Of a DNA stretch of 64,000 nucleotides, positions 16,289 through 34,788 are shown one piece after another (position 1 is the first letter of the stretch; every line of letters starts with the position of its first letter). The position numbers and the translations under genes were made by a program. The DNA lies in NCBI RefSeq assembly GCF_009931435.1, contig NZ_CP043414.1, one strand, 5' to 3'. Source of the DNA: Escherichia coli. Its GTDB lineage: Bacteria; Pseudomonadota; Gammaproteobacteria; Enterobacterales; Enterobacteriaceae. Under the pieces are notes generated by a model. It worked only from the letters and a program-made list of their open reading frames with translations. It made no database searches and was not told the origin of the DNA.

Positions 16289-16404
16289 AACGCCTCCAGC
16301 CTCATTACTTACCCGCACAAAATAGAATTGTGCTGTACAAACGTCCAGTTTGAAAGAAGTTTCCTGCGAGGCGCTACGCAAAACGATCCTTAATTTTTAT
16401 TATT

Positions 16405-16444
16405 TTATCCCACAATATGAGACCTAGTTTATATTGTGGGATAA
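16405..16444. promoter_or_regulatory. Perfect 14-bp inverted repeat (TTATCCCACAATAT-N12-ATATTGTGGGATAA), candidate operator for the adjacent IclR-family regulator
   Basis: Read directly in the rmuC / IclR-gene divergent intergenic region, about 60 bp upstream of the regulator ATG. Confidence 0.5.
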
Positions 16445-16503
16445 ATCACCTTTTCCCCACGTCATTATGTGGAACACTTCAGCAATATCATCAGGAGAAA
16501 CGT

Positions 16504-22128: not shown

Positions 22129-22157
22129 GCTCCCCTAAGCCAGGGAGCGTTTTTTAT
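22129..22157. terminator. Bidirectional rho-independent terminator between the TctA-like gene and udp
   Basis: Hairpin GCTCCCCTAAGCCAGGGAGC followed by TTTTTTATTT on the + strand; overlaps the udp stop. Confidence 0.65.
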
Positions 22158-22918
22158 TTCAGCAGACGACGCGCCGCTTCCACCACGATTTTCACCGCCT
22201 GGCTTTCGGTTTGTTTCATCGTCTCAGCATTCGGGATCTCTTGCTGGGTACGATTGACGATAACGCCCGCCACCATACCCGCACGCAGGCCCTGGCTTGC
22301 ACACATGGTCAGCAGGGTTGCAGATTCCATTTCATAGTTCATTACGCCCATCGCCTGCCACTCTTCCATAGAACCTTTAAAGTGACGGACTACACGACCA
22401 GAGTAAGTATCGTAACGTTCCTGACCCGGGTAGAAGGTATCAGAAGAAGCCGTCACACCAACGTGAGTGGTGGCACCAATTGACTTCGCCGCTTCAACCA
22501 GCGCGGTCGTACATTCGAAATCTGCGACAGCCGGGAACTCCAGCGGAGCGAAGTGCAGGCTCGCGCCATCCAGACGAACAGACGCCGTGGTCACCAGCAC
22601 ATCGCCGACATTGATATGCGGCTGGATAGCGCCCGTTGTACCGATACGCAGGAAGGTGCGAATGCCCAGCTGTGCCAGCTCTTCAACCGCAATAGAGGTA
22701 GACGGGCCGCCGATACCGGTAGAGCAGACGATAACAGGTTTACCATCCAGCTCTGCACGCCAGGTGGTGAATTCGCGGTGAGATGCCAGCTTAACCGGCT
22801 TATCCATCAGCGCGGCGATCTTTTCCACACGATCCGGGTCGCCAGGGACGATGGCAAGCGTAGCCCCTTGTAAATCGTTTTTAGTGAGGCCGAGATGAAA
22901 AACATCAGACTTGGACAT
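22154..22918 (-). CDS. udp: Uridine phosphorylase Udp
   Basis: Track ORF 22154..22924 trimmed to [31 protein letters not shown]... with AGGAG RBS. Confidence 0.93.
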
Positions 22919-23179
22919 ATACAACTCCTCTGTGAATCGGTTTAGTCAGAAGAAGCAAAAAGACACTTTACCGAAGGGTTTAACATTTTTTCGTGACACT
23001 CATCACCTTGATGCAAATGCGTTGCATAAATTTACCCAGCAAAAGTGATGCGAATCACATAAATCACTCTTCATTCTGCATGACTGCATAAAAGATGAGC
23101 CGATTCAGGCAATGTGATTTGTTGCATGCTGACTATAGTTAACATTGCGCAACATTTTTATAAGGGTACGGAGAATACC

Positions 23180-23989
23180 ATGGCAACAACACAACAATCT
23201 GGATTTGCACCTGCTGCATCACCTCTCGCTTCGACCATCGTTCAGACCCCGGATGACGCGATTGTAGCAGGCATCACCTCTATCCCTTCACAAGGGGATA
23301 ACATGCCTGCTTACCATGCCAGACCAAAGCAGAGCGATGGCCTACTACCAGTGGTCATTGTAGTGCAGGAAATTTTTGGCGTGCATGAACATATCCGCGA
23401 TATTTGTCGCCGTCTGGCGCTGGAGGGGTATCTGGCTATCGCACCTGAACTTTACTTCCGCGAAGGCGATCCGAATGATTTTGCCGATATCCCTACGCTG
23501 CTTAGCGGTCTGGTAGCAAAAGTGCCTGACTCGCAGGTGCTGGCCGATCTCGATCATGTCGCCAGTTGGGCGTCACGCAACGGCGGCGATGTTCATCGCT
23601 TAATGATCACCGGATTTTGCTGGGGTGGGCGCATCACCTGGCTGTATGCTGCGCATAATCCACAACTGAAAGCAGCGGTGGCATGGTACGGCAAATTAAC
23701 CGGCGATAAGACGCTGAATTCACCGAAACAACCTGTTGATATCGCAACCGATCTTAACGCTCCGGTTCTCGGCTTATATGGCGGCCAGGATAACAGCATT
23801 CCGCAGGAGAGCGTTGAAACCATGCGCCAGGCGCTGCGGGCTGCTAATGCGAAAGCAGAGATTATCGTCTACCCGGATGCCGGGCATGCATTCAACGCCG
23901 ATTATCGCCCGAGCTATCATGCCGAATCTGCGAAAGATGGCTGGCAGCGAATGCTGGAGTGGTTTAAGCAGTATGGTGTTAAAAAGTAA
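23180..23989 (+). CDS. dlhH: Dienelactone hydrolase-family protein DlhH (YsgA)
   Basis: Track ORF 23114..23989 trimmed to MATTQQSGFAPAASPLASTIVQTPDD...; matches remembered YsgA. Confidence 0.85.
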   Translation: MATTQQSGFAPAASPLASTIVQTPDDAIVAGITSIPSQGDNMPAYHARPKQSDGLLPVVIVVQEIFGVHEHIRDICRRLALEGYLAIAPELYFREGDPNDFADIPTLLSGLVAKVPDSQVLADLDHVASWASRNGGDVHRLMITGFCWGGRITWLYAAHNPQLKAAVAWYGKLTGDKTLNSPKQPVDIATDLNAPVLGLYGGQDNSIPQESVETMRQALRAANAKAEIIVYPDAGHAFNADYRPSYHAESAKDGWQRMLEWFKQYGVKK

Positions 23990-24055
23990 CGCCATAGCCG
24001 CTAAATCTGATGATTAAGCTCACACAATTTCAACGATTTTTTTAATCTCAAAACC

Positions 24056-24084
24056 ATACAGCATCAAAAAATTTGTTGCTGTAT
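24056..24084. promoter_or_regulatory. Dyad ATACAGCA-N13-TGCTGTAT with a degenerate second copy about 75 bp downstream, candidate regulator binding site upstream of the accessory operon
   Basis: Read directly in the 256-bp leader upstream of the isochorismatase-like gene; second copy GCAAAAATTTCGTTGCTGTGC near 24132..24152. Confidence 0.35.
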
Positions 24085-24245
24085 GCCACTCTTTGACTCC
24101 CTTCACATTCGTCATCACACCACCTGTTGAATGCAAAAATTTCGTTGCTGTGCGGCAAACTTTTTTCCTGTTTTATGCCGCTTTTCTCCTGAATACTCGC
24201 TCTCAGAACAACTGGATCGTTTAAACATCAGACAGGAGATTTACC

Positions 24246-24914
24246 ATGACGCAATCCATTTTTCAGGCTCAACCCTTTGAATTACCTTTTGATCCGCGCA
24301 CAACTGCACTGGTCATGATCGACATGCAGCGTGACTTTGTCGAAGCAGGGGGCTTCGGTGAGGCACTGGGCAATGATGTTTCACTGGTACGCACGGCTAT
24401 CGCACCATGTACAGAGGTGCTGGCAGCCGCACGTCAAAAAGGAATTATGGTTATTCATACTCGTGAAGGCCATCGTGCAGACTTAAGCGACTGCCCGCCA
24501 GCCAAACTGACGCGCGGCGGAAAAACCTTTATTGGTGAACCAGGACCGATGGGACGCATTCTGGTCAGAGGTGAAGCGGGTCATGACATCATTCCTGAAC
24601 TGTACCCAGTGACAGGCGAACCGGTGATTGATAAGCCCGGTAAAGGCGCTTTTTATCAAACCGACTTACATCTGATTTTGCAAAACCACGGTATCAAGAC
24701 GCTGATAGTTTGTGGTGTAACAACCGAAGTTTGCGTAACCACCACCGTGCGCGAAGCAAATGACCGTGGCTATGAATGCATTATCCCGGAAGATTGTGTC
24801 GGCTCATATTTCCCGGAATTCCAGAAATATGCCCTCGAGATGATCAAAGCACAAGGTGCCATTTTCGGTTGGGTGAGTGATTCCAAAGCCATTATTGCAG
24901 GTCTGGAAGGCTAA
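24246..24914 (+). CDS. Isochorismatase-family cysteine hydrolase (RutB / N-carbamoylsarcosine amidase-like)
   Basis: 222-aa ORF; family motifs ALVMIDMQRDF (Asp), conserved Lys and LIVCGVTTEVCV (catalytic Cys); GGAG RBS. Confidence 0.75.
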   Translation: MTQSIFQAQPFELPFDPRTTALVMIDMQRDFVEAGGFGEALGNDVSLVRTAIAPCTEVLAAARQKGIMVIHTREGHRADLSDCPPAKLTRGGKTFIGEPGPMGRILVRGEAGHDIIPELYPVTGEPVIDKPGKGAFYQTDLHLILQNHGIKTLIVCGVTTEVCVTTTVREANDRGYECIIPEDCVGSYFPEFQKYALEMIKAQGAIFGWVSDSKAIIAGLEG

Positions 24915-24919
24915 CGCCG

Positions 24920-25780
24920 ATGGTACAGGTGACGCTTTGCGCATCATCGTTGGGATATCTTTTCCCGCAAAATGAAACGCAAGATTTACGTCTGCATAGT
25001 GCTTTTAAACATGCGGTAAATCTGTATTCAGAAGCGGGAACATTCATCACTCTGTTGTGTGCGCAAACGTATCTGAATCTCCCTGATGCCGCCAGAGTCA
25101 ACCTGCCTGAGAATTGGGACTGGCGAAGAGAGATTGCCCATTCAGATCCCATTCAGTTAACCCCAGGCTTGTTACAAACACCTCGCTTTTGCGTGGTGCT
25201 TCATAACACAACACTTTGGCAACCGCCATTTGTGGGGGGAATGCTGACACTTGAGGCATTCCCTTTGGTTTTCCAGCACTACCCAACGATGGCATCGCAA
25301 CGGCTTTTATTTTGTCTGGAGCATAACGTTCAAAGCACATTGCACCTGCCGGATAGTCTCACGCACCAGGGATTAGCGATTATGGAACATCCAGATGCAC
25401 TGGAACGCCAGGTGCCACAACTGATCGGCTTTGGTAAAGGCTTAACGCCCGATGGAGATGACTATTTGTTGGGCTATCTGGCAGCGCTCTGGTTATGGCA
25501 ACTCCCTGCAACACTTGCCGATCATCAATACCGGTTGCAGCAGGCAATTGATCAACATGCGCACAACACCACGGATATCAGTCGTCATTATCTGGAGCGT
25601 GCGCTTCAGGGGCATTTTTCAGAACCGATTTGCCAGTTACTCGCACAACTGGTTGGGGGCGCATCGGAAATGACAATCGCATCCTGTGCAGAACAGGTCA
25701 TGCAATTTGGCGCAACGTCAGGAGTAGATTGCCTTGCAGGAATGCTGCATGGCTTTCGAACCCTGAACACCATGAATTGA
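24920..25780 (+). CDS. DUF2877-family protein (YlbF/YahE-like)
   Basis: 286-aa ORF starting 6 bp after the hydrolase stop; resemblance to YlbF/YahE proteins that accompany FdrA-like genes. Confidence 0.55.
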   Translation: MVQVTLCASSLGYLFPQNETQDLRLHSAFKHAVNLYSEAGTFITLLCAQTYLNLPDAARVNLPENWDWRREIAHSDPIQLTPGLLQTPRFCVVLHNTTLWQPPFVGGMLTLEAFPLVFQHYPTMASQRLLFCLEHNVQSTLHLPDSLTHQGLAIMEHPDALERQVPQLIGFGKGLTPDGDDYLLGYLAALWLWQLPATLADHQYRLQQAIDQHAHNTTDISRHYLERALQGHFSEPICQLLAQLVGGASEMTIASCAEQVMQFGATSGVDCLAGMLHGFRTLNTMN

Positions 25781-25874
25781 TTTCAACCTTTTCTCCCGTA
25801 GCCCATTTATGGCGCTACACGGGGATGCTTTGCCCGAATTTTGCTATCGGGCGGAATAAAACAGGCGTAACAGC

Positions 25875-27434
25875 ATGAAAGTTAAATATAAAGTTTTCAG
25901 CAATCTTTATCAGGACTCGGTTTCTCTGATGCAGATTTCCGCGCAAATCAGTAAGTTGCCCGGTATTCAACAGGCCTCGGTCGTCATGGGAACACCCAAT
26001 AATCTCGAACAATTGCGCGATGCGGGTCTGGGTAACGAAATCAACGCCAGTCCCAATGATTTAGTGATTGCAGTCATGGGTGAAGAAGATATTTGCAATG
26101 AAGCACTGATACTGGCCCAGCAACGTCTGACCAGCAAACCCGATGATGAAACGGATAGTGGCATTAAAACACCGGAAAATGTCAGCCTGGAAATGGCACT
26201 GGAAGCCGACACCGAAGCCAACCTGGCACTCATTTCTGTACCGGGAGACTACGCCGCCGCCGAAGCAATTAAAGCGTTAAACCTCGGAATGAACGTGATG
26301 ATGTTCAGCGATAACGTCAGTATCGGGCAGGAAAAATCCATCAAAACACTTGCCCGAGAACGTCAGCGCATCGTAATGGGACCTGATTGTGGAACCGCCA
26401 TTGTTAACGGCATTCCGTTAGGCTTCGCTAATGTGGTGAAACGCGGAGCAATTGGTGTTATTGGCGCGTCAGGCACCGGGCTACAGGAAGTGACTTGCCG
26501 AATCGACCAGCTCGGAGCGGGTATTTCTCAGGCGTTGGGAACAGGCGGGCATGATCTCAGTGAAGAGATTGGTGGAATATCGATGCTCTTCGCTTTAGAT
26601 GCGCTGGCGCAAGACGATGAAACTCGCGTGATTGTGCTTATTTCAAAACCGCCTTCACCGATCGTTGCCCGGGCTATTCTGGAGCGCGCCGAGGCTTGTG
26701 GAAAACCCGTGGTGGTGAATTTCCTCGGTGCGAATCCGCATGATCTGGCACGTCCCAATATCACCGCTGCCGCCACACTTGCCAGCGCCGCAAATATCGC
26801 CGTGGCAGTACTGAATGATCAGCCACTTCCGACTGTCGAGACCGAGATTTCCTGCGACGATCTCACAATGTTACAAAACGCCTGCCAGCGTCTGCCAGCC
26901 CATCGCCAGGCGATACGCGGTGTTTTCGCCGGAGGAACCTTCTGTTACGAAGCGCAACTTATCTGCCAGCAAAAGGGATTCAGCGCCGCCTCCAATACGC
27001 CAGTTGCGGGTAATCGTACTCTGGCAAATATCTGGCAAAGCAAAGGTCACACGCTGATCGATATGGGCGACGATGATTTCACCCGTGGCAAACCGCATCC
27101 AATGATCGACCCGACTCTGCGCAATCAACGTCTGCTCAACGAACTCAACGACTCACACACTGCCGTCGTGTTATTCGACCTGGTACTTGGTTATGGCGCT
27201 TCCGCTACGCCTGCCAGCGAATTACTGGACCAACTTTCACACATCGACATGAATAACGCACCGTTGCTGATTGCGCACGTTTGCGGAACGGAAGCTGATC
27301 CGCAAATACGCAGTCAGCAGATAAGCGCACTACAAAATGCGGGCATCATCATTGCCAGCAGCAATGCACAGGCGGCGCTATGGGCCAGCGCCGTTGCGCA
27401 GACTCAGTTGCAGAAAAAGGGGCTAAACGCATGA
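25875..27434 (+). CDS. FdrA-family protein (CoA-ligase-like; FdrA/YahF paralogue)
   Basis: 519-aa ORF MKVKYKVFSNLYQDSVSLMQISAQ...; conserved blocks NVMMFSDNV, MGPDCGT, GVIGASGTGLQE and GKPHPMIDPTLRNQ match remembered FdrA. Confidence 0.75.
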   Translation: MKVKYKVFSNLYQDSVSLMQISAQISKLPGIQQASVVMGTPNNLEQLRDAGLGNEINASPNDLVIAVMGEEDICNEALILAQQRLTSKPDDETDSGIKTPENVSLEMALEADTEANLALISVPGDYAAAEAIKALNLGMNVMMFSDNVSIGQEKSIKTLARERQRIVMGPDCGTAIVNGIPLGFANVVKRGAIGVIGASGTGLQEVTCRIDQLGAGISQALGTGGHDLSEEIGGISMLFALDALAQDDETRVIVLISKPPSPIVARAILERAEACGKPVVVNFLGANPHDLARPNITAAATLASAANIAVAVLNDQPLPTVETEISCDDLTMLQNACQRLPAHRQAIRGVFAGGTFCYEAQLICQQKGFSAASNTPVAGNRTLANIWQSKGHTLIDMGDDDFTRGKPHPMIDPTLRNQRLLNELNDSHTAVVLFDLVLGYGASATPASELLDQLSHIDMNNAPLLIAHVCGTEADPQIRSQQISALQNAGIIIASSNAQAALWASAVAQTQLQKKGLNA

Positions 27435-28855
27435 ATACCTTATTTAATCAGCCTTTGAAGGTCGTGAACGCGGGACTACACAGTTTTGCTGACAATATTC
27501 AACATGCCGGGGGAAGCGCAATTGCACTCAACTGGCAGCCACCAGCACAAGGCGATATTGACGCTGGATTGGATCTGGCATCGTTGCTACGTCATCCACT
27601 AGTAGAAAATGCCAATCAAATCGCCATGACACGTTATCTCGAAGCACAACCCGTGCTGGTGGATGTCATGCTCGCTAAAGAGGCCATTCCAGCAATGGCT
27701 GAACAAAAACGTATTTTGCACTCTGGTCCGCCGATTGCCTGGGAAGAGATGTGTGGTCCGGTAAAAGGGGCGATTATTGGTGCCATGCTGTACGAAGGTT
27801 GGGCCACCAGCCAGCAAGACGCTGAAAACCAGATAAACACAGGCGAAATCGACCTTGCCCCTTGTCATCATTATCACGCGGTTGGACCAATGGCAGGCAT
27901 CATCAGCCCGTCGATGCCGTTATGGGTGGTAGAAAACAAAACCAACGGCCACCGTACTTTTAGCAATTTCAATGAAGGTCTGGGTAAGGTTCTCCGTTTT
28001 GGTGCCAATAACGATGAAGTTCTCAATCGTCTGGCCTGGATGCGCGATGAACTGGCACCGGCAATGAAAGCAGCAATCGCACAACACGGCGAGCTGGAAC
28101 TCAAGCCATTAATGGCGCAGGCGCTGCATATGGGGGATGAAGTTCATAACCGCAATGCTGCCGCTACCGGTTTGCTGATTAAGCGCCTGCTCCCGGCATT
28201 GCTGGCCTGCTCTATTCCACAGGAACATATCCAGCGCGTCGTGGCATTTATCACCAGTAACGATCACTTCTTCCTCAATCTGTCGATGGCTGCCTGTAAA
28301 GCGATGATGGATGCCGCCGCCAATGTACCGTTCAGTTCAATGGTTACGGTGATGGCGCGTAACGGGGTGAATTTTGGTATTCGGCTTTCCGGTACTGGCG
28401 ATCGCTGGTTCCAGGCTCCTGCCAATGCAGTTGAAGGTCTGTTCTTCCCCGGATTTGGCGTCGACGATGCCGCTGCTGACCTGGGTGATAGCGCAATTAC
28501 CGAAACCGCAGGTGTGGGTGGCTTCGCGATGGCGTCATCTCCAGCGATCGTCAAATTTGTGGGAGGCACCCCTGCCGATGCCACCAATAACAGCCGTAGG
28601 ATGCAAGCAATCACCCTCGGTGGTAACCCCGCATTTACACTTCCTGCCCTCAATTTTGCCCCCACCGCAGCAGGGATTGATGCGCGTAAAGTGACCGATC
28701 GCGGCATTTTACCGGTCATCAATACGGGTATCGCCCACAAACAAGCGGGGGTCGGGCAAATTGGTGCCGGGATCACCACTGCGCCGATGGCCTGTTTTGT
28801 CGCCGCTGTACGTGCACTGTCTGAGATCGTCGCAAAGGAGAACCATCATGGTTAA
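27431..28855 (+). CDS. DUF1116-family protein (YlbE/YahG-like)
   Basis: Track ORF 27380..28855 trimmed to MNTLFNQPLKVVNAGLHSFADNIQ...; ATGA overlap with the FdrA-like stop. Confidence 0.65.
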   Translation: MNTLFNQPLKVVNAGLHSFADNIQHAGGSAIALNWQPPAQGDIDAGLDLASLLRHPLVENANQIAMTRYLEAQPVLVDVMLAKEAIPAMAEQKRILHSGPPIAWEEMCGPVKGAIIGAMLYEGWATSQQDAENQINTGEIDLAPCHHYHAVGPMAGIISPSMPLWVVENKTNGHRTFSNFNEGLGKVLRFGANNDEVLNRLAWMRDELAPAMKAAIAQHGELELKPLMAQALHMGDEVHNRNAAATGLLIKRLLPALLACSIPQEHIQRVVAFITSNDHFFLNLSMAACKAMMDAAANVPFSSMVTVMARNGVNFGIRLSGTGDRWFQAPANAVEGLFFPGFGVDDAAADLGDSAITETAGVGGFAMASSPAIVKFVGGTPADATNNSRRMQAITLGGNPAFTLPALNFAPTAAGIDARKVTDRGILPVINTGIAHKQAGVGQIGAGITTAPMACFVAAVRALSEIVAKENHHG

Positions 28856-29804
28856 GCCACTGGCTGTTGTCGCAGTTGGCGGCAATGCGCTCATTCAGGA
28901 CGAGCAACGCAATAGTATTCCCGATCAATATGTTGCAGTGATGGAAAGCGTGCAGCATATCGTTGATATGGTTGAAGCCGGATGGGACCTGGTGCTTACC
29001 CACGGTAATGGCCCGCAGGTGGGCTTTATTCTGCGCCGCTCTGAACTCGCCAGTAACGAAGTTTCTCCGGTTCCACTTGATTACGCCGTGGGTGATACAC
29101 AAGGTGCAATTGGCTACATGTTCCAGAAAGCGCTGCATAACGAATTGGCTCGCCGTGGCATAAACAAACCGGTAATTGCGCTGGTGACACAAACGCGAGT
29201 CTGCCCACATGACGATGCTTTCACCAGCCCCAGTAAACCGATTGGCGCGTTTCTCGATGAAGCAACGGCCCTACAACGCCAACAGCAACTCGGCTGGACG
29301 CTGATGGAGGACGCCGGGCGTGGTTGGCGGCGTACAGTTCCCTCTCCTGCGCCACTGGAAATTATTGAGCACGACACCATCGCTCACCTGGTGCGCCAGG
29401 GATATCTGGTTATTGCCTGCGGCGGTGGCGGTATTCCGGTGGTGCGAGACGGACAACAACTGAAAGGTGTGGAAGCCGTGATCGATAAAGATCTGGCCTC
29501 CGCGCTGCTCGCCAGTCAGTTAGGCGCAGATCTGCTGGTGATCCCCACCGGTGTAGAAAAAGTGGCGATTAACTTTGGTACACCACAACAACAGTGGCTC
29601 GACGCTATCAGCGTTGCCGAAGCGCAAACGCTGTTACGGGAAGGTCAGTTTGGTGTCGGCAGTATGCAGCCCAAAGTGGAAGCCATTGTTGATTTCATCA
29701 ATGCCAGCCAACAACAAGGCAAACAGGCCAGCGGCCTGATTACTTCACCGCAAACCATAAAAGCAGCCCTTTCGCATCAGAGCGGCACATGGATAACCCT
29801 TTAA
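28848..29804 (+). CDS. Carbamate kinase-family protein (ArcC/YahI-like)
   Basis: Track ORF 28761..29804 trimmed to MVKPLAVVAVGGNALIQDEQ... after AAGGAG RBS; amino-acid-kinase fold signatures (AVGGNAL, THGNGPQVG, VIACGGGGIPV); overlaps upstream gene by 8 nt. Confidence 0.75.
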   Translation: MVKPLAVVAVGGNALIQDEQRNSIPDQYVAVMESVQHIVDMVEAGWDLVLTHGNGPQVGFILRRSELASNEVSPVPLDYAVGDTQGAIGYMFQKALHNELARRGINKPVIALVTQTRVCPHDDAFTSPSKPIGAFLDEATALQRQQQLGWTLMEDAGRGWRRTVPSPAPLEIIEHDTIAHLVRQGYLVIACGGGGIPVVRDGQQLKGVEAVIDKDLASALLASQLGADLLVIPTGVEKVAINFGTPQQQWLDAISVAEAQTLLREGQFGVGSMQPKVEAIVDFINASQQQGKQASGLITSPQTIKAALSHQSGTWITL

Positions 29805-29820
29805 TTCTCTGGAGAACTCA

Positions 29821-30210
29821 ATGACTACAACACTTTTAGCCGTTAACGGAACGCTGATGCGTGGCCTGGAACTCAACCCAAATATGCAAAAAGCGGGCGG
29901 CATTTTTGTCCGTGAAGACCGAACTGACGCCCATTACAGGTTGTGGAGTATTAACGATCGTCATCCGGGAATGATTCGCGTGAATGAAGGAGGAACACAC
30001 GTCGACGTAGAAATTTGGCAATTACCACTGACCAGTTTTGCCGCTCTGTTAATGAGCGAACCCGCTGGGCTGGCAATTGGCAAAATCAAACTTGCCGATG
30101 GTAGCGAAGTGCTGGGCGTACTGGCAGAAAACTGGCTGACCGAAGGCCAACGGGAAATTACAGAACTGGGTAGCTGGCGCAAATACACCGGGCATTTTCA
30201 TACTGTGTAA
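29821..30210 (+). CDS. Small protein, possibly gamma-glutamylcyclotransferase / AIG2-like fold
   Basis: 129-aa ORF MTTTLLAVNGTLMRGLELNPNM...; the N-terminal [YV]G[ST]LM/K motif resembles GGCT-like proteins; weak assignment. Confidence 0.4.
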   Translation: MTTTLLAVNGTLMRGLELNPNMQKAGGIFVREDRTDAHYRLWSINDRHPGMIRVNEGGTHVDVEIWQLPLTSFAALLMSEPAGLAIGKIKLADGSEVLGVLAENWLTEGQREITELGSWRKYTGHFHTV

Positions 30211-30235
30211 CGCGCATTTTTAAAGGGAACATACT

Positions 30236-31459
30236 ATGCGTAAAAAAGAAGAGAATCTGAATACAGCATCAGGATTGCGTATTGCCATGATTTTACTGGG
30301 TATTGCCGTCACACCTGTGCTGTTGTCATCCTCAAGCCTCGGCAATCAACTTTCCAGCGGCAGTTTAATTAGCGTCGTATTGTTAGGCGGCGTCATTCTG
30401 ACCTTACTTTCAGCCATCACCATTAGCGTGGGAGAAAAAGCCCGCCTGCCAACGTATGGCATTGTGAAATATTCGTTTGGCGAAAAAGGGGCCATCGCCA
30501 TTAACATTTTGATGGCGATAAGTCTGTTCGGCTGGATTGCCGTTACCGCCAATATGTTTGGTCATTCGGTACATGACTTACTGGCTCAACATGGACTGGA
30601 AGTTCCACTAGCACTGTTAGTGGCTGCTGGCTGTGTCATTTTTGTCGCCTCTACAGCATTTGGTTTTGCCGTTCTGGGAAAAATTGCCCAGGTTGCCGTG
30701 CCGGTTATCGCGCTGGTGCTGTGTTACATCCTCTATGTGGCAACCCATACCGAAGTGGCAGCACCAGCGGTGATTGTGGAGATGAATACGGGTGTCGCTG
30801 TTTCCACCGTTGTTGGCACCATTATTGTGCTGGTTGCCACACTGCCTGATTTCGGTAGTTTTGTGCATAACCGCAAACATGCGCTGATTGCCGCAGGCGT
30901 GACGTTTCTGGTTGCCTACCCTCTGCTCTACTGGGCGGGAGCAACGCCGAGCGCCATTAGTGGTCAGGGATCTTTACTGGGTGCGATGGCGGTATTCGGT
31001 GCGGTTCTGCCCGCGGCGCTGTTGTTGATTTTCGCCTGCGTCACCGGTAACGCGGGCAATATGTTCCAGGGCACGCTGGTGGTTTCCACACTGCTTACCC
31101 ACTTTCCCAAATGGCAGATTACCGTGGCGCTGGGTATCCTTTCCGCCATCGTAGGCAGTCTGGATATTATGGCGTGGTTTATTCCGTTTCTGCTGTTCCT
31201 GGGTATCGCCACGCCACCCGTTGCCGGAATTTATATCGCTGACTTTTTCCTTTATCGCCGTAATGGCTATCAAGAGTCAGTGTTAGCCCAGGAGTCACAG
31301 ATCAAAGTGCTGACATTCGCAGCATGGATCATAGGTGCAGCGGTTGGCTTTATGACCGTAAAAGGCTTATTCACCCTGACGACAATCCCTTCGGTAGACT
31401 CGATTCTGGTGGCATGTATCGCGTATGCGATTCTCAGTCGGGCAAGTCAACGCCGCTAA
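30236..31459 (+). CDS. Polytopic membrane permease, possibly nucleobase-cation symporter (CodB/NCS1-like)
   Basis: 407-aa highly hydrophobic ORF with about 12 predicted TM stretches; family assignment tentative. Confidence 0.5.
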   Translation: MRKKEENLNTASGLRIAMILLGIAVTPVLLSSSSLGNQLSSGSLISVVLLGGVILTLLSAITISVGEKARLPTYGIVKYSFGEKGAIAINILMAISLFGWIAVTANMFGHSVHDLLAQHGLEVPLALLVAAGCVIFVASTAFGFAVLGKIAQVAVPVIALVLCYILYVATHTEVAAPAVIVEMNTGVAVSTVVGTIIVLVATLPDFGSFVHNRKHALIAAGVTFLVAYPLLYWAGATPSAISGQGSLLGAMAVFGAVLPAALLLIFACVTGNAGNMFQGTLVVSTLLTHFPKWQITVALGILSAIVGSLDIMAWFIPFLLFLGIATPPVAGIYIADFFLYRRNGYQESVLAQESQIKVLTFAAWIIGAAVGFMTVKGLFTLTTIPSVDSILVACIAYAILSRASQRR

Positions 31460-31536
31460 TTCCTGGGTATACTCAGGCAATGATTACGGCTGAATCTGGA
31501 GAGATTCAGCCACTTTACCACTGACCAGGGAGCCTT

Positions 31537-32433
31537 ATGTTCATCTCAGACGAAACGCTTCGTGTTATTCATCTGGTCGCCAGACACCAGAGCATTACCA
31601 CCGCAGCCGAACAGTTAAATAAAGTCCCTTCCGCCATCAGTTACACCATCAAGAAAGTGGAAGAGAGCCTGGGCGTTGAACTGTTCATTCGTAAGGGACG
31701 CTATATTGAATTATCTCCGGCGGGGAGTTACTTCATCGAACATAGCAAAACTATTCTGGGCGACCTGGAAGCATTAAAGCGCAACACAGTGCTGATTCAC
31801 GATGGTATTGAACGTGAACTGACAATTGCGGTGAACAATATTATTCCTGGTGATTTGCTGGTGGCATTTATTCGAGATTTTGAACGGCAATTCACATCAA
31901 CAACACTGACGGTAGATCTTGAGGTATACAACGGCTGCTGGGATGCGCTGTACAGTAAGCGTGCTGATCTGGTCTACGGTGCTCCTCATGCAGTGCCAAG
32001 CAGTGAAGGCATCATTAGCGAACCGGTCGGACAAATGGAATGGGATTTTGTCGTCAGCCCACTCCACCCACTGGCAGCGAAGCGGCATCCATTAGAAAAC
32101 AGTGAATTGCGTCATTATCCAGCGGTTTGTATCCGCGATACCTCCGTTAACTTCCCCCCGATGCAAGCCTGGCTGTTGGAAGGACAAAAACCGATTTTTG
32201 TTCCTGACTTCGCTACGGCAATCGCCTTAATAGAACAAAACGTCGGTATTGGTTATATTCCACATCATCTGGCATTGCCGTTATTGAACAGCGGTAAATT
32301 GCTTAAAAAGCCAATGCGCGAACATAAACACGCCACCAAGTTATTTCTTGCCGCTCGTTCCGATGGTATGGGCAAAGCCTGTCAGTGGTGCATAGAATAT
32401 TTAAGAAATCCGCAATTAATTTTCTGTTCCTGA
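31537..32433 (+). CDS. LysR-family transcriptional regulator
   Basis: 298-aa ORF with N-terminal LTTR helix-turn-helix SITTAAEQLNKVPSAISYTIKKVEESLGVELFIRKGR; GGGAG RBS. Confidence 0.75.
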   Translation: MFISDETLRVIHLVARHQSITTAAEQLNKVPSAISYTIKKVEESLGVELFIRKGRYIELSPAGSYFIEHSKTILGDLEALKRNTVLIHDGIERELTIAVNNIIPGDLLVAFIRDFERQFTSTTLTVDLEVYNGCWDALYSKRADLVYGAPHAVPSSEGIISEPVGQMEWDFVVSPLHPLAAKRHPLENSELRHYPAVCIRDTSVNFPPMQAWLLEGQKPIFVPDFATAIALIEQNVGIGYIPHHLALPLLNSGKLLKKPMREHKHATKLFLAARSDGMGKACQWCIEYLRNPQLIFCS

Positions 32434-32462
32434 AGATCCACATCATACCTGGCATACATAGC

Positions 32463-32495
32463 AAAATGGCTTCCGGTGTTGGAAGCCATTATTGT
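32463..32495. terminator. Bidirectional terminator between the LysR gene and metE (convergent)
   Basis: Perfect hairpin AATGGCTTCCGGTGTTGGAAGCCATT flanked by T-runs on both strands. Confidence 0.6.
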
Positions 32496-32526
32496 GCTGC
32501 AATTTACAATGACTCGTTAATACTCA

Positions 32527-34788
32527 TCATCCCCGACGCAAATTCTGCGCCGCCTGCACCATGTTCGCCAGTGCCGCGCGGGTTTCTGGCCAGCCGCGCG
32601 TTTTCAAACCACAGTCCGGGTTAACCCACAGACGCTCTGCCGGAATGCGTTTTGCCGCTTTCTTCAGCAGGGACTCAATCCATTCCACGCTCGGTACGTT
32701 TGGCGAGTGAATGTCATAGACGCCTGGACCAATTTCATTTGGATAATCAAACTCTTCAAACGACTCCAGCAACTCCATGTCGGAACGCGAGGTTTCGATT
32801 GTGATGACGTCAGCATCCAGCGCCGCAATCGAATCCATGATGTCGTTGAACTCGCAGTAACACATGTGAGTGTGGATTTGCGTGTCATCTTTCGCTACGG
32901 CAGCGTTGATACGGAAAGCCTCCACGCCCCACTGGAGATAGGCATCCCAGTCGCTGCGACGCAGTGGTAAACCTTCGCGCAATGCCGGTTCGTCAATCTG
33001 AATGATGCCAATTCCAGCGGCTTCCAGATCGGCCACTTCATCACGCAGCGCCAGCGCAATTTGTTTGGCGATGGTTTCACGGCTGACATCTTCACGCGGG
33101 AACGACCAGCAGAGAATGGTCACCGGGCCAGTCAGCATCCCTTTCACCGGTTTGTCGGTCAGCGATTGCGCATACTTTGCCCACTCCACGGTAATCGGTG
33201 CCGGGCGGCTAACGTCACCAATGACAATCGGCGGTTTCACGCAGCGGGAACCGTAGCTCTGTACCCAACCGTTTTGTGTAAAGACAAAACCGTCGAGGTG
33301 CTCACCAAAGTATTCCACCATGTCATTACGCTCGGCCTCACCATGCACCAGCACATCCAGACCCAGACGTTCCTGCTCAACAATGGCCTGCTTGATATGT
33401 TCTGCAATGCCCGTACGATAGTTGTTGGCGTCGAGATTACCCTTTTTGAAATCCAGACGCAGGGTACGGATTTCTGTGGTTTGCGGGAAAGAGCCAATCG
33501 TGGTGGTCGGCCACGCGGGCAGTTTAAAACGCGCACGCTGGGCTTCAGCACGCACTTCATAGACATTCGCACGCTGACTGTCCTGGGCGGTGATCGCCGC
33601 CAGACGCTTTTCTACTGCCGGATTATGTACACGAGTAGAGTGACGACGCGCCTGAATCGGTGCACTCCACTCTGCCAGAGCTGCCGTGTCACCACTGTTC
33701 AGCGCATCGCGCAGCAATGCCAGTTCATGGCATTTTTGCAGGGCGAAGGCAAACCAGCTTTTCACTTCTGCATCAAGACGCGTTTCCACGCTCAGGTCGA
33801 TAGGGCTGTGCAGCAATGAGCAGGAAGATGCCACCCACAAATCACGTTTGCCGACAATGTCCTTAATTTGCGCATATTTCTCGGTAAGATCGGCGCGCCA
33901 GACGTTACGACCATTGATAAGACCAGCAGATAGCAGCCAGTCAGAAGGCAGACGCTTGTGCAGTTCAGCAACGTCATCTTTACCATGTACGAGATCGACA
34001 TGCAGACCCTGAACAGGCAGCGCAGTAATGGTGTCGAGGTTTGGCGTTACGCCTTCAAAATAGGTAGTCAGCAGCAGTTTCACCTGGCCCTGGAGCGCGT
34101 CGTAAGCGGGTTTATAGGCGTCCAGCCACGCCTGCGGCAGTTCCAGCACCAGCGCGGGTTCGTCGATCTGTACCCACTCAATGCCACGTTTTGCCAGTTC
34201 TGCCAACACTTGCTGATAAACCGGCAGAATGTCGCTCAGCAGGCTCAGGCGATCAAACTGTTCACCTTTCACTTTACCCAGCCACAGGTAGGTAACCGGT
34301 CCCAGCAGCACGGGCTTGACCTTGTGGCCCAGCGCCAGCGCCTCGTCCACTTCCTCCAGCAGCTGCGTCCAGGTCAGTTTGAACTGTTGGCCTTTAACGA
34401 ACTCCGGCACCATGTAGTGATAGTTGGTGTTAAACCATTTGGTCATTTCCGCTGCCGCCGCAGGTTCGCCAGTCGGTGCACGTCCACGACCAATACGGAA
34501 CAGAGTGTCGATATCTACCGAACCATCTTTGTTCTGGTGACGCGCCGGAACGTTACCCAGCAGCAGACTGGTGGTCAGTACATGATCGTACCAGGCAAAA
34601 TCGCCCACCGGCAGCAGGTCGATACCCGCTTGCTTTTGTTGATCCCAGTGACGAGCACGCAGTTCACGCCCTACCGCCAGCAGTTCTTCACGCGTGGAGT
34701 TCCCCGCCCAATAACTCTCTTGCGCTTTTTTCAGCTCGCGACGCAGGCCAACGCGAGGGAAACCGAGGGTGTGATTCAATATTGTCAT
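32527..34788 (-). CDS. metE: Cobalamin-independent methionine synthase MetE
   Basis: 753-aa [33 protein letters not shown]...; matches MetE. Confidence 0.97.

Follow-up and report, generated by a model that had tools for sequence, protein, structure and literature searches.

What controls the eight-gene island that lies between ysgA and metE in many Escherichia coli chromosomes? We addressed this question in a 64,000-nucleotide stretch of contig NZ_CP043414.1 (assembly GCF_009931435.1; hereafter the window), in which the gene order is udp (minus strand, 22154-22924), ysgA (23114-23989), the eight-gene plus-strand island and metE (minus strand). The gap between ysgA and the first island gene, which encodes a cysteine hydrolase, is 256 bp long (23990-24245). 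An earlier reading made from the sequence alone had pointed to a dyad in this gap with a related copy downstream, and had taken the two as recognition and activation sites of the LysR-family regulator encoded at the end of the island. We consider it likely that the gap is the promoter/operator region of a catabolic operon, made up of three LysR boxes, two sites resembling those of the cyclic AMP (cAMP) receptor protein (CRP) on either side of the most distal box and a conserved -10 element, and that it works by a combined LysR and CRP mechanism.

The perfect 8-bp arms of the dyad, ATACAGCA (24056-24063) and TGCTGTAT (24077-24084), separated by a 13-nt spacer, are indeed present in the gap, and the full dyad is a 31-bp palindrome (24055-24085) whose arms (24055-24068 and 24072-24085) are complementary at 13 of 14 positions around a 3-nt centre. 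The related second copy is also real (GCAAAAATTTCGTTGCTGTGC, 24133-24153), but it lies 69 bp away in register and not about 75 bp as first described. It is identical with the right half of the palindrome at 16 of 18 nucleotides, a value reached in none of 200 shuffles of the region. A third, weaker copy, missed by the sequence-only reading, is found at 24151-24171, 22-23 bp beyond the second. The palindrome, the second copy and the third copy are called here boxes B, D and E (Table 1); they share the core CAAA-N3-TTTG (CAAA-AAA-TTTG in B, CAAA-AAT-TTCG in D and CAAA-CTT-TTTT in E) and are of the T-N11-A type of the LysR family. A resemblance due to chance alone in a spacer rich in A+T, with no function behind it, would fit both the abundance of perfect 8-bp arms (53 in the window, or ~0.2 per 256 bp) and the way in which such spacers inflate similarity. 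However, the 64 kb contain just two instances of 14-nt arms with one mismatch or none (0.55 expected per random window), and the 13/14 palindrome and the 16/18 direct repeat both lie above all controls. Sequence and spacing are moreover conserved across orders, and this cross-genus conservation effectively refutes the chance explanation, to which we attach almost no weight.

When the 260 nt upstream of the first gene were aligned for 21 enterobacterial loci from ~14 genera, conservation was restricted to discrete blocks, namely A, a T-tract, B, C, D, E and the -10 (Table 1). The spacing of these blocks is 48-49 bp between A and B, 35-36 bp between B and C, exactly 22 bp between D and E (21 of 21 loci) and 35-36 bp from E to the -10 (40 bp in two Serratia loci). 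The C-D spacing is 34-35 bp, or 44-46 bp in five genera; this is the sole tolerated indel, and its size of 10-11 bp corresponds to one helical turn. Between the -10 and the start codon the spacing varies (42-65 bp). Rigid spacing combined with an indel of one helical turn suggests a protein-DNA complex that depends on the face of the helix, rather than an RNA element or neutral sequence. Comparison of three E. coli alleles gave 20 polymorphic sites, of which only 2 fall inside blocks, both of them at degenerate spacer positions (P = 0.007). Box B keeps its dyad symmetry at two sets of offsets only, 3-5 (CAA/TTG, in 17-19 of the 19 sequences from outside E. coli) and 8-9 (GC/GC, in 12-13 of them), and what other genera keep of the palindrome is only the inner GC-N2-CAA-N5-TTG-N2-GC (24061-24079). 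Offsets 10-15 pair in just 5-11 of the 19 sequences; most of the 8-bp arms (the outer ATACA/TGTAT) is thus an E. coli-specific extension.

This pattern also bears on the possibility that the palindrome acts as RNA, either as a terminator or stabilising hairpin of ysgA or as a leader structure of the operon. The E. coli sequence does fold stably (-14.7 kcal/mol, z = -5.2), and the bidirectional terminator found after ysgA in K-12 has given way to the island. But besides the poor pairing of the outer stem in other genera, the inner bases are invariant with no covariation, the stem is A/U-rich and followed by GCCACUCUUUGAC with no U-tract, the terminator scan does not call the palindrome, and Rfam gives two weak chance matches only (19.8 and 17.1 bits, against gathering thresholds of 49 and 45). 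The palindrome furthermore lies upstream of the conserved -10, and the box recurs in genomes where ysgA is not a neighbour. We regard an RNA role as very unlikely. The only terminator-like structure that the scan did call (24144-24156 with a T-run) overlaps boxes D and E; its stem is weak, at 5 bp, and we took it as incidental.

A position weight matrix (PWM) trained on the B and D boxes of the non-E. coli enterics was scanned over 127,960 window positions. Box B ranks first (28.0 bits; its reverse strand is second) and box D third (20.8 bits), and the next unrelated match scores 13.3 bits. The T-tract upstream of box B shows column conservation CaaC.AtTTTTTt in the enteric alignment, and minus-strand PWM matches of 12.6-16.8 bits occur at it in Citrobacter and Serratia. 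For box B, nothing conserved was found at the partner positions of +/-22 bp, only the weak inverted copy ~31 bp upstream.

How the boxes are to be assigned depends on the promoter. The pentamer ATACT (24193-24197) is conserved in 20 of the 21 enterics and is the sole -10-like element at a fixed spacing to the boxes, the centre of box D lying 58 bp before its last base. A strict sigma-70 consensus scan found no plus-strand promoter in the gap; the lack of a complete sigma-70 promoter is expected if the promoter depends on an activator and has a poor -35. Stacking of the loci on the centre of proximal box D shows a -10-like hexamer of the TAnnnT type 52-58 bp downstream in about nine orders (Enterobacterales, Vibrionales, Shewanella, Motilimonas, Halomonas, Silvimonas, Amantichitinum, Paraburkholderia, Caballeronia and Dyella). 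The start was predicted ~7 nt past the -10, which gives the promoter distances in Table 1. A second promoter running from block A, with CTCACA as -35 and TTTAAT as -10, was rejected: its putative -10 is without the conserved A2 and varies among genera.

In betaproteobacterial and Dyella loci the -65/-43/-10 unit stands alone, with the distal box absent and the box-to--10 distance unchanged; by eye, the betaproteobacterial loci have neither a distal box nor CRP-like sites. The motif AAATCATTT occurs at +18 to +26 from the proximal box centre in enterics, betaproteobacteria and Dyella, and the box E consensus is also found in Silvimonas, Amantichitinum, Dyella and Caballeronia. The -65/-43/-10 geometry is, as far as this comparison of loci goes, the ancestral conserved unit. 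These results speak against the pairing first proposed, in which the palindrome is the recognition site, the second copy ~70 bp on is the activation site and the promoter lies just past the second copy. The palindrome is the most symmetric and the top-scoring box, as is usual for recognition sites, and both copies are conserved. However, the copies are 69-81 bp apart, compared with about two helical turns in LysR-type promoters, and the position of the conserved -10 places them at ~-65 and ~-134; the orthologues that lack the distal box have just box D and the box 22 bp downstream of it. We consider that pairing unlikely to be right. The claim that the boxes are operators of the island LysR holds up well, whereas the assignment of recognition and activation does not: the second copy (24139) is probably the recognition site, the third copy (24161) the activation site and the palindrome an auxiliary upstream operator.

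Which protein would bind these boxes? The island LysR scores 289 bits against the PunR model of NCBIfam (cut-off 345) and 216 bits against the AllS model (cut-off 372); both scores are under the cut-off, so the protein is a member of this subfamily, yet neither PunR nor AllS. PunR is the closest characterised paralogue (34% identity), and the presumed recognition helices are VPSAISYTIKK in the island protein and VPSAVSYTVRQ in PunR, the former being kept in the Motilimonas, Silvimonas and Caballeronia orthologues. The PunR operator is known from chromatin immunoprecipitation with exonuclease treatment (ChIP-exo), fluorescence polarisation and electrophoretic mobility shift assays, with the consensus TsttwTCAAwAwwwTTGaaGGCA and the E. 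coli probe ggactggtttcaaaaattttgcaggcagag (PMC8376909). On the punC strand, the K-12 punR-punC gap reads CTGCAAAATTTTTGAAACCAGTCATCAAATATTACCG, with a CAAA-ATT-TTTG box and then the half-box TCAAATATT 22 bp on. The distal island box (TCAA-AAAAT-TTGT) agrees with the PunR core at 7 of 8 positions and the boxes of the Vibrio group (Photobacterium, Motilimonas, Shewanella and Vibrio; TCAA-N5-TTGA) at 8 of 8, and the proximal box (GCAA-AAATT-TCGT) is a weaker match. The flanks do not agree, the island having caGCA...c.GCtg, with GC at offsets 8-9, versus TsttW...aaGGCA in PunR; this difference could separate the two regulons. In the Vibrio group the boxes are ATCAA-N5-TTGAT palindromes 100-103 bp apart, and the regulator gene lies upstream on the same strand.

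The boxes also go together with the regulator gene. Among non-enteric loci, a box of at least 10 bits lies upstream of the first gene in 27 of the 31 with a LysR homologue and in 2 of the 29 without one (P = 1e-10, Fisher's exact test). A cleaner contrast is available within Caballeronia, where the five loci with the regulator all keep the box. Of the six Caballeronia loci without LysR in the fetched DNA, four (L037, L038, L042 and L050) are boxless and two (L029 and L032) have only weak matches (11-12 bits) at a different position (-57); L037 retains a decayed box at the homologous place.

It could be argued that another regulator binds the boxes, by cross-talk from PunR or through another chromosomal factor, and that the linked LysR acts elsewhere. 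The core shared with the PunR operator, the presence of PunR in all E. coli and two enteric loci that have boxes with no LysR found nearby would be consistent with this. But the flanks GCAnCAA...TTGnnGC of the island differ from those of the PunR operator, and the boxes accompany the island and its LysR gene as far as Caballeronia, Dyella and Vibrio, in differing chromosomal contexts. We think a foreign binder improbable, and the island LysR remains our preferred candidate. The boxes were also compared by eye with the consensus sequences of other regulators, and none of these was retained: there is no GG at the spacing required for sigma-54 (GG-N10-GC), NtrC and Nac (ATA-N9-TAT) have no match, the ArgR ARG box has the wrong spacing, IHF (WATCAANNNNTTR) is one base off in conserved columns, and the PurR consensus (ACGCAAACGTTTGCGT) fits the proximal box in its left half but not in its central CG or its right half.

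The two CRP-like sites, A and C, flank the distal box. In the 21 enterics, the right half of site C (TTTGACTCCCTTCACA), the TG-A of its left half and the 6-bp spacing are conserved, and a constant 29.5 bp separates its centre from that of box B, both here and in the Photobacterium/Motilimonas group. At ~-104.5 +/- 1 from the predicted start, site C would be in helical phase with class I CRP positions. The TCACA of site A is invariant in the 21 enterics, 48-49 bp from the distal box centre. The Vibrio group carries CRP-like sites (7-10 of 10 positions matching) on both sides of the distal box, at 54.5 bp upstream and 29.5 bp downstream, and also 29.5-30.5 bp ahead of the proximal box. The core is perfect (TGTGAGCTAGCTCACA) in the Shewanella site at 54.5 bp, which corresponds to enteric site A at 53.5 bp. 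CRP-core matches with at most one mismatch number two in the window, site C and one in the udp promoter region, which equals the chance expectation of 2.04; the case for CRP therefore stands on position and conservation, and on these grounds we read A and C as probable cAMP-CRP sites. The second match, AGTGATGCGAATCACA (23044-23059, 9/10), lies in the divergent udp-ysgA promoter region, and we presume it to be a udp CRP site.

We propose that a tetramer of the island PunR/AllS-type LysR would sit on box D (-65, recognition) and box E (-43, activation) and, once bound to its inducer, would recruit RNA polymerase to the promoter, which offers a good -10 but lacks a -35. cAMP-CRP at site C would add catabolite control and a DNA bend. 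A further LysR dimer or tetramer on palindrome B would join the proximal one in a phase-dependent complex, probably by way of the CRP bend, and box B might serve in co-activation, in looping or in repression without inducer. A more far-reaching and tentative version, which we think possible but would not favour, is a phase-locked LysR-CRP-LysR complex shared by Enterobacterales and Vibrionales, with the geometry box, 29.5 bp, CRP site, 39.5 bp (or one helical turn more), box pair. The second tetramer on the palindrome would there touch the proximal tetramer in an octamer-like activation or anti-activation loop. If this were true, a LysR-CRP-LysR loop would gate a widespread ureide or biuret-type pathway, with an oxamate-transcarbamylase-like complex and a carbamate kinase, that could yield ATP.

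Several points weigh against the proposed LysR and CRP switch. The coordinates -65, -43 and -134 hang on a start predicted from the conserved -10, and the binder is likewise deduced from sequence. Box E scores only 7.3 bits with the PWM (rank 20), and box D has TCG where PunR-type boxes have TTG and is a poor palindrome in E. coli. Strong PWM matches also occur by chance, as shown by one of 21 bits inside a Rahnella coding sequence. The left half of site A is poorly conserved in several genera, which weakens its identity as a CRP site. The association of LysR and box is confounded by phylogeny and G+C content, the loci without LysR being mostly high-G+C Mycobacterium, Chloroflexi and alphaproteobacteria, and the enteric loci L011 and L017 keep their boxes although no LysR gene lies in the +/-10 kb that were fetched. 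Finally, lysR lies downstream on the same strand, not in the classical divergent arrangement. A divergent regulator gene is frequent in the LysR family and not obligatory. Among the loci studied, divergent lysR genes are found only in Crenobacter, Laribacter and Pseudovibrio; E. coli and the other enteric loci have lysR at the end of the island, in the orientation of the other genes and preceded by a -10-like element of its own.

Table 1. Elements of the ysgA-cysteine hydrolase gap and the island genes in the window; distances are from the predicted start (~24204), and roles are putative
Feature	Positions	Centre; distance from predicted start	Strand	Sequence or content	Conserved block in 21 enterics
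CRP-like site A	24009-24024	24016.5; ~-187.5	+	GATGA-TTAAGC-TCACA, 8/10 of TGTGA-N6-TCACA	TCACA, 24020-24024 (block A)
T-tract	24031-24046			CAACGATTTTTTTAAT; weak inverted copy of box right half, inverted repeats with both boxes	ATTTTTT, 24036-24043
Distal operator box B (the dyad first described)	24055-24085; core 24061-24079	24070; ~-134		GC-at-CAA-aaaat-TTG-tt-GC	CAGCATCAA-N4-TTTGC.GC (block B)
CRP-like site C	24092-24107	24099.5; ~-104.5	+	TTTGA-CTCCCT-TCACA, 9/10	ttTGa-N6-TCACAyTt, 24092-24107 (block C)
Proximal operator box D (the second copy first described)	24130-24148	24139; ~-65	+	aaTGCAA-AAATT-TCGTTGC; consensus TgCAAAATTTTCGTTGCTG	TGCAAAATTTTCGTTGCTG (block D)
Third, degenerate box E	24151-24171	24161; ~-43	+	CAAA-CTT-TTTT then CTGT; overlaps -35 region	AAAtCaTTT..CTGT (block E)
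-10 hexamer	24192-24197		+	AATACT (TATACT in most genera); start predicted ~24204; no good -35	(T/A)ATACT, 24192-24197
Structural genes under control	24246-31459		+	BiuH-like cysteine hydrolase (24246-24914), DUF2877, FdrA, DUF1116, carbamate kinase, allophanate-hydrolase-C-terminal-like protein, NCS1 permease	
LysR-family regulator, PunR/AllS subfamily, presumed box binder	31537-32433		+	last of eight island genes	

Of 5426 complete E. coli genomes, 1499 carry the 256-bp gap (95-100% identity), among them Nissle 1917. In K-12 the stops of ysgA and metE are 39 bp apart with the bidirectional terminator accgggtggtattaccacccggt between them (K-12 locus L084 2815-2855). In the window the island substitutes for this terminator segment and for the last ysgA codons (QYGVKK* versus QYGGKKSL*; 23975-23989 and 32520-32530). 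The replacement leaves ysgA without its terminator, and it follows that the entire 256-bp gap belongs to the island. The island is 'GR 29' of strain BEN2908, where it has been annotated in silico only and its regulation is not treated (PMC12928451), and our literature search found no study on the regulation of this island. In Nissle 1917 (L001 18654-20261) a MurR/RpiR regulator gene and a transketolase gene follow the LysR gene, whereas metE follows directly in the window (32434-32527); the right-hand end of the island region thus varies among E. coli strains.

An ortholog scan with one genome per species returned 80 loci, and ~50 orthologous loci have the whole operon in the same gene order. 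The operon (24246-31459 in the window; loci L002-L081) ranges from Enterobacterales to Burkholderiales, Mycobacterium and Chloroflexi, and its cysteine hydrolase is 80-92% identical even in very distant bacteria (70-92% across operon-bearing taxa). The DUF2877/FdrA/DUF1116 set is paralogous to the oxamate transcarbamylase AllFGH, and the genes together suggest that a ureide resembling biuret, allophanate or oxalurate is broken down with a gain of ATP. In nitrifiers, biuH is co-located with allFGHK (PMC12625717).

The LysR gene is the last of the island, as the sequence-only reading had it, but it probably has a promoter of its own. The permease-LysR gap (31460-31536) carries the -10-like TATACT at 31468-31473, which is TATAAT in most enterics, followed by a hairpin, GGCTGAATCT-ggag-AGATTCAGCC (~31489-31512), whose pairing is kept though its sequence varies by genus; in Rahnella and Silvimonas a T-run follows the hairpin. 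The LysR gene may thus have its own promoter and/or lie behind an attenuator or terminator, and may not simply be the last gene of the operon. No box was found upstream of the LysR gene. The operon leaders of the Vibrio group share a short hairpin, located ~-60 to -35 relative to the start codon, despite differing sequence (GTTAACCACTTTGAGTTAAC in Photobacterium, Motilimonas and Shewanella and ACGCAAAAGAGCGT in Vibrio; loci L014, L018, L020 and L047 compared with L044, L045 and L049), and this hairpin may be a structure of the leader RNA. Apart from the palindrome, the window has just one long inverted repeat, TTTATCCCACAATAT-N12-ATATTGTGGGATAAA (16403-16446); it precedes a gene for an IclR-family regulator, the first of a cluster of 2-dehydro-3-deoxygalactonate kinase/aldolase and TctCBA transporter genes inserted between rmuC and udp, and it looks like a candidate operator for that regulator.

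The kind of switch proposed here, LysR boxes interleaved with CRP-like sites, is ordinary, and it was previously unmapped for this accessory nitrogen-catabolism island. The delineated promoter, with its three boxes, CRP-like sites and predicted start, provides a handle on an uncharacterised and widespread catabolic island. Since the same operator and geometry accompany the operon from Enterobacterales to Burkholderiales, regulator and operator appear to travel with the pathway as one module. The PWM can be used for finding further regulon members. One candidate, an extra member ~9 kb past the operon start in Rahnella/AwEntero (L023 19262-19282; also L019, L024 and L027), was rejected as a chance match in the signal-peptide codons (MKNVKIFAVA) of a small secreted protein.

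Compared with known systems, the island promoter combines several familiar layouts. GcvA at gcvT is a LysR-type regulator with promoter-proximal and far-upstream sites that relies on Lrp for its architecture. The island promoter resembles it in combining proximal sites with distal ones that lie more than 100 bp upstream, but the subfamily, the box and the distances are different, and Lrp takes the place of CRP. Promoters with an activator and upstream CRP include araBAD, with CRP at -93.5, and uhpT, with CRP at -103.5 upstream of the UhpA sites, a position that our literature search did not confirm. Like these, the island promoter has its activator over ~-75 to -35 and a CRP-like site farther upstream in class I phase; unlike them, it has a second activator box upstream of the CRP-like site, and its CRP site is itself putative. 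Classical LysR promoters (CbnR, BenM/CatM and AtzR) have a recognition site at ~-65 and an activation site at ~-35/-45 with T-N11-A boxes. The island shares with them the dyad at ~-65, the less symmetric box two turns on over the -35, the weak -35 with a good -10 and the linked regulator, whereas the strong palindrome at ~-134 with CRP-like sites on either side is an addition, and the enteric regulator gene is not divergent.

AllS, which activates the allDCE promoter of the allantoin regulon in K-12, is the second-closest characterised paralogue of the island regulator, and its neighbourhood has paralogous fdrA, DUF1116, DUF2877 and carbamate kinase genes (allFGHK; PMC12625717). By eye, the K-12 allD-fdrA intergenic region has just one half-box (TTATCAAATAAATTC, minus strand). 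Just past a TTTGAT half-box, CTCACTTTT followed by a T/A tract is seen both in the K-12 allD-fdrA gap (L083 21460-21500) and in the island promoters of the Vibrio group (GATTTACTCACTTTTTTAAT), and this combination may be common to promoters of the AllS/PunR subfamily.

The closest known switch is the PunR-punC operator. The island regulator is no PunR orthologue, the box flanks differ, punR is divergent from punC where the island lysR follows its operon in the same orientation, and the distal palindrome and the CRP-like sites are extra features of the island promoter. Nevertheless, the two systems have in common the LysR subfamily, a near-identical recognition helix, the operator core and a half-box 22 bp downstream, together with a target that includes a nucleobase-type transporter and a part in the use of purines or nitrogen sources.

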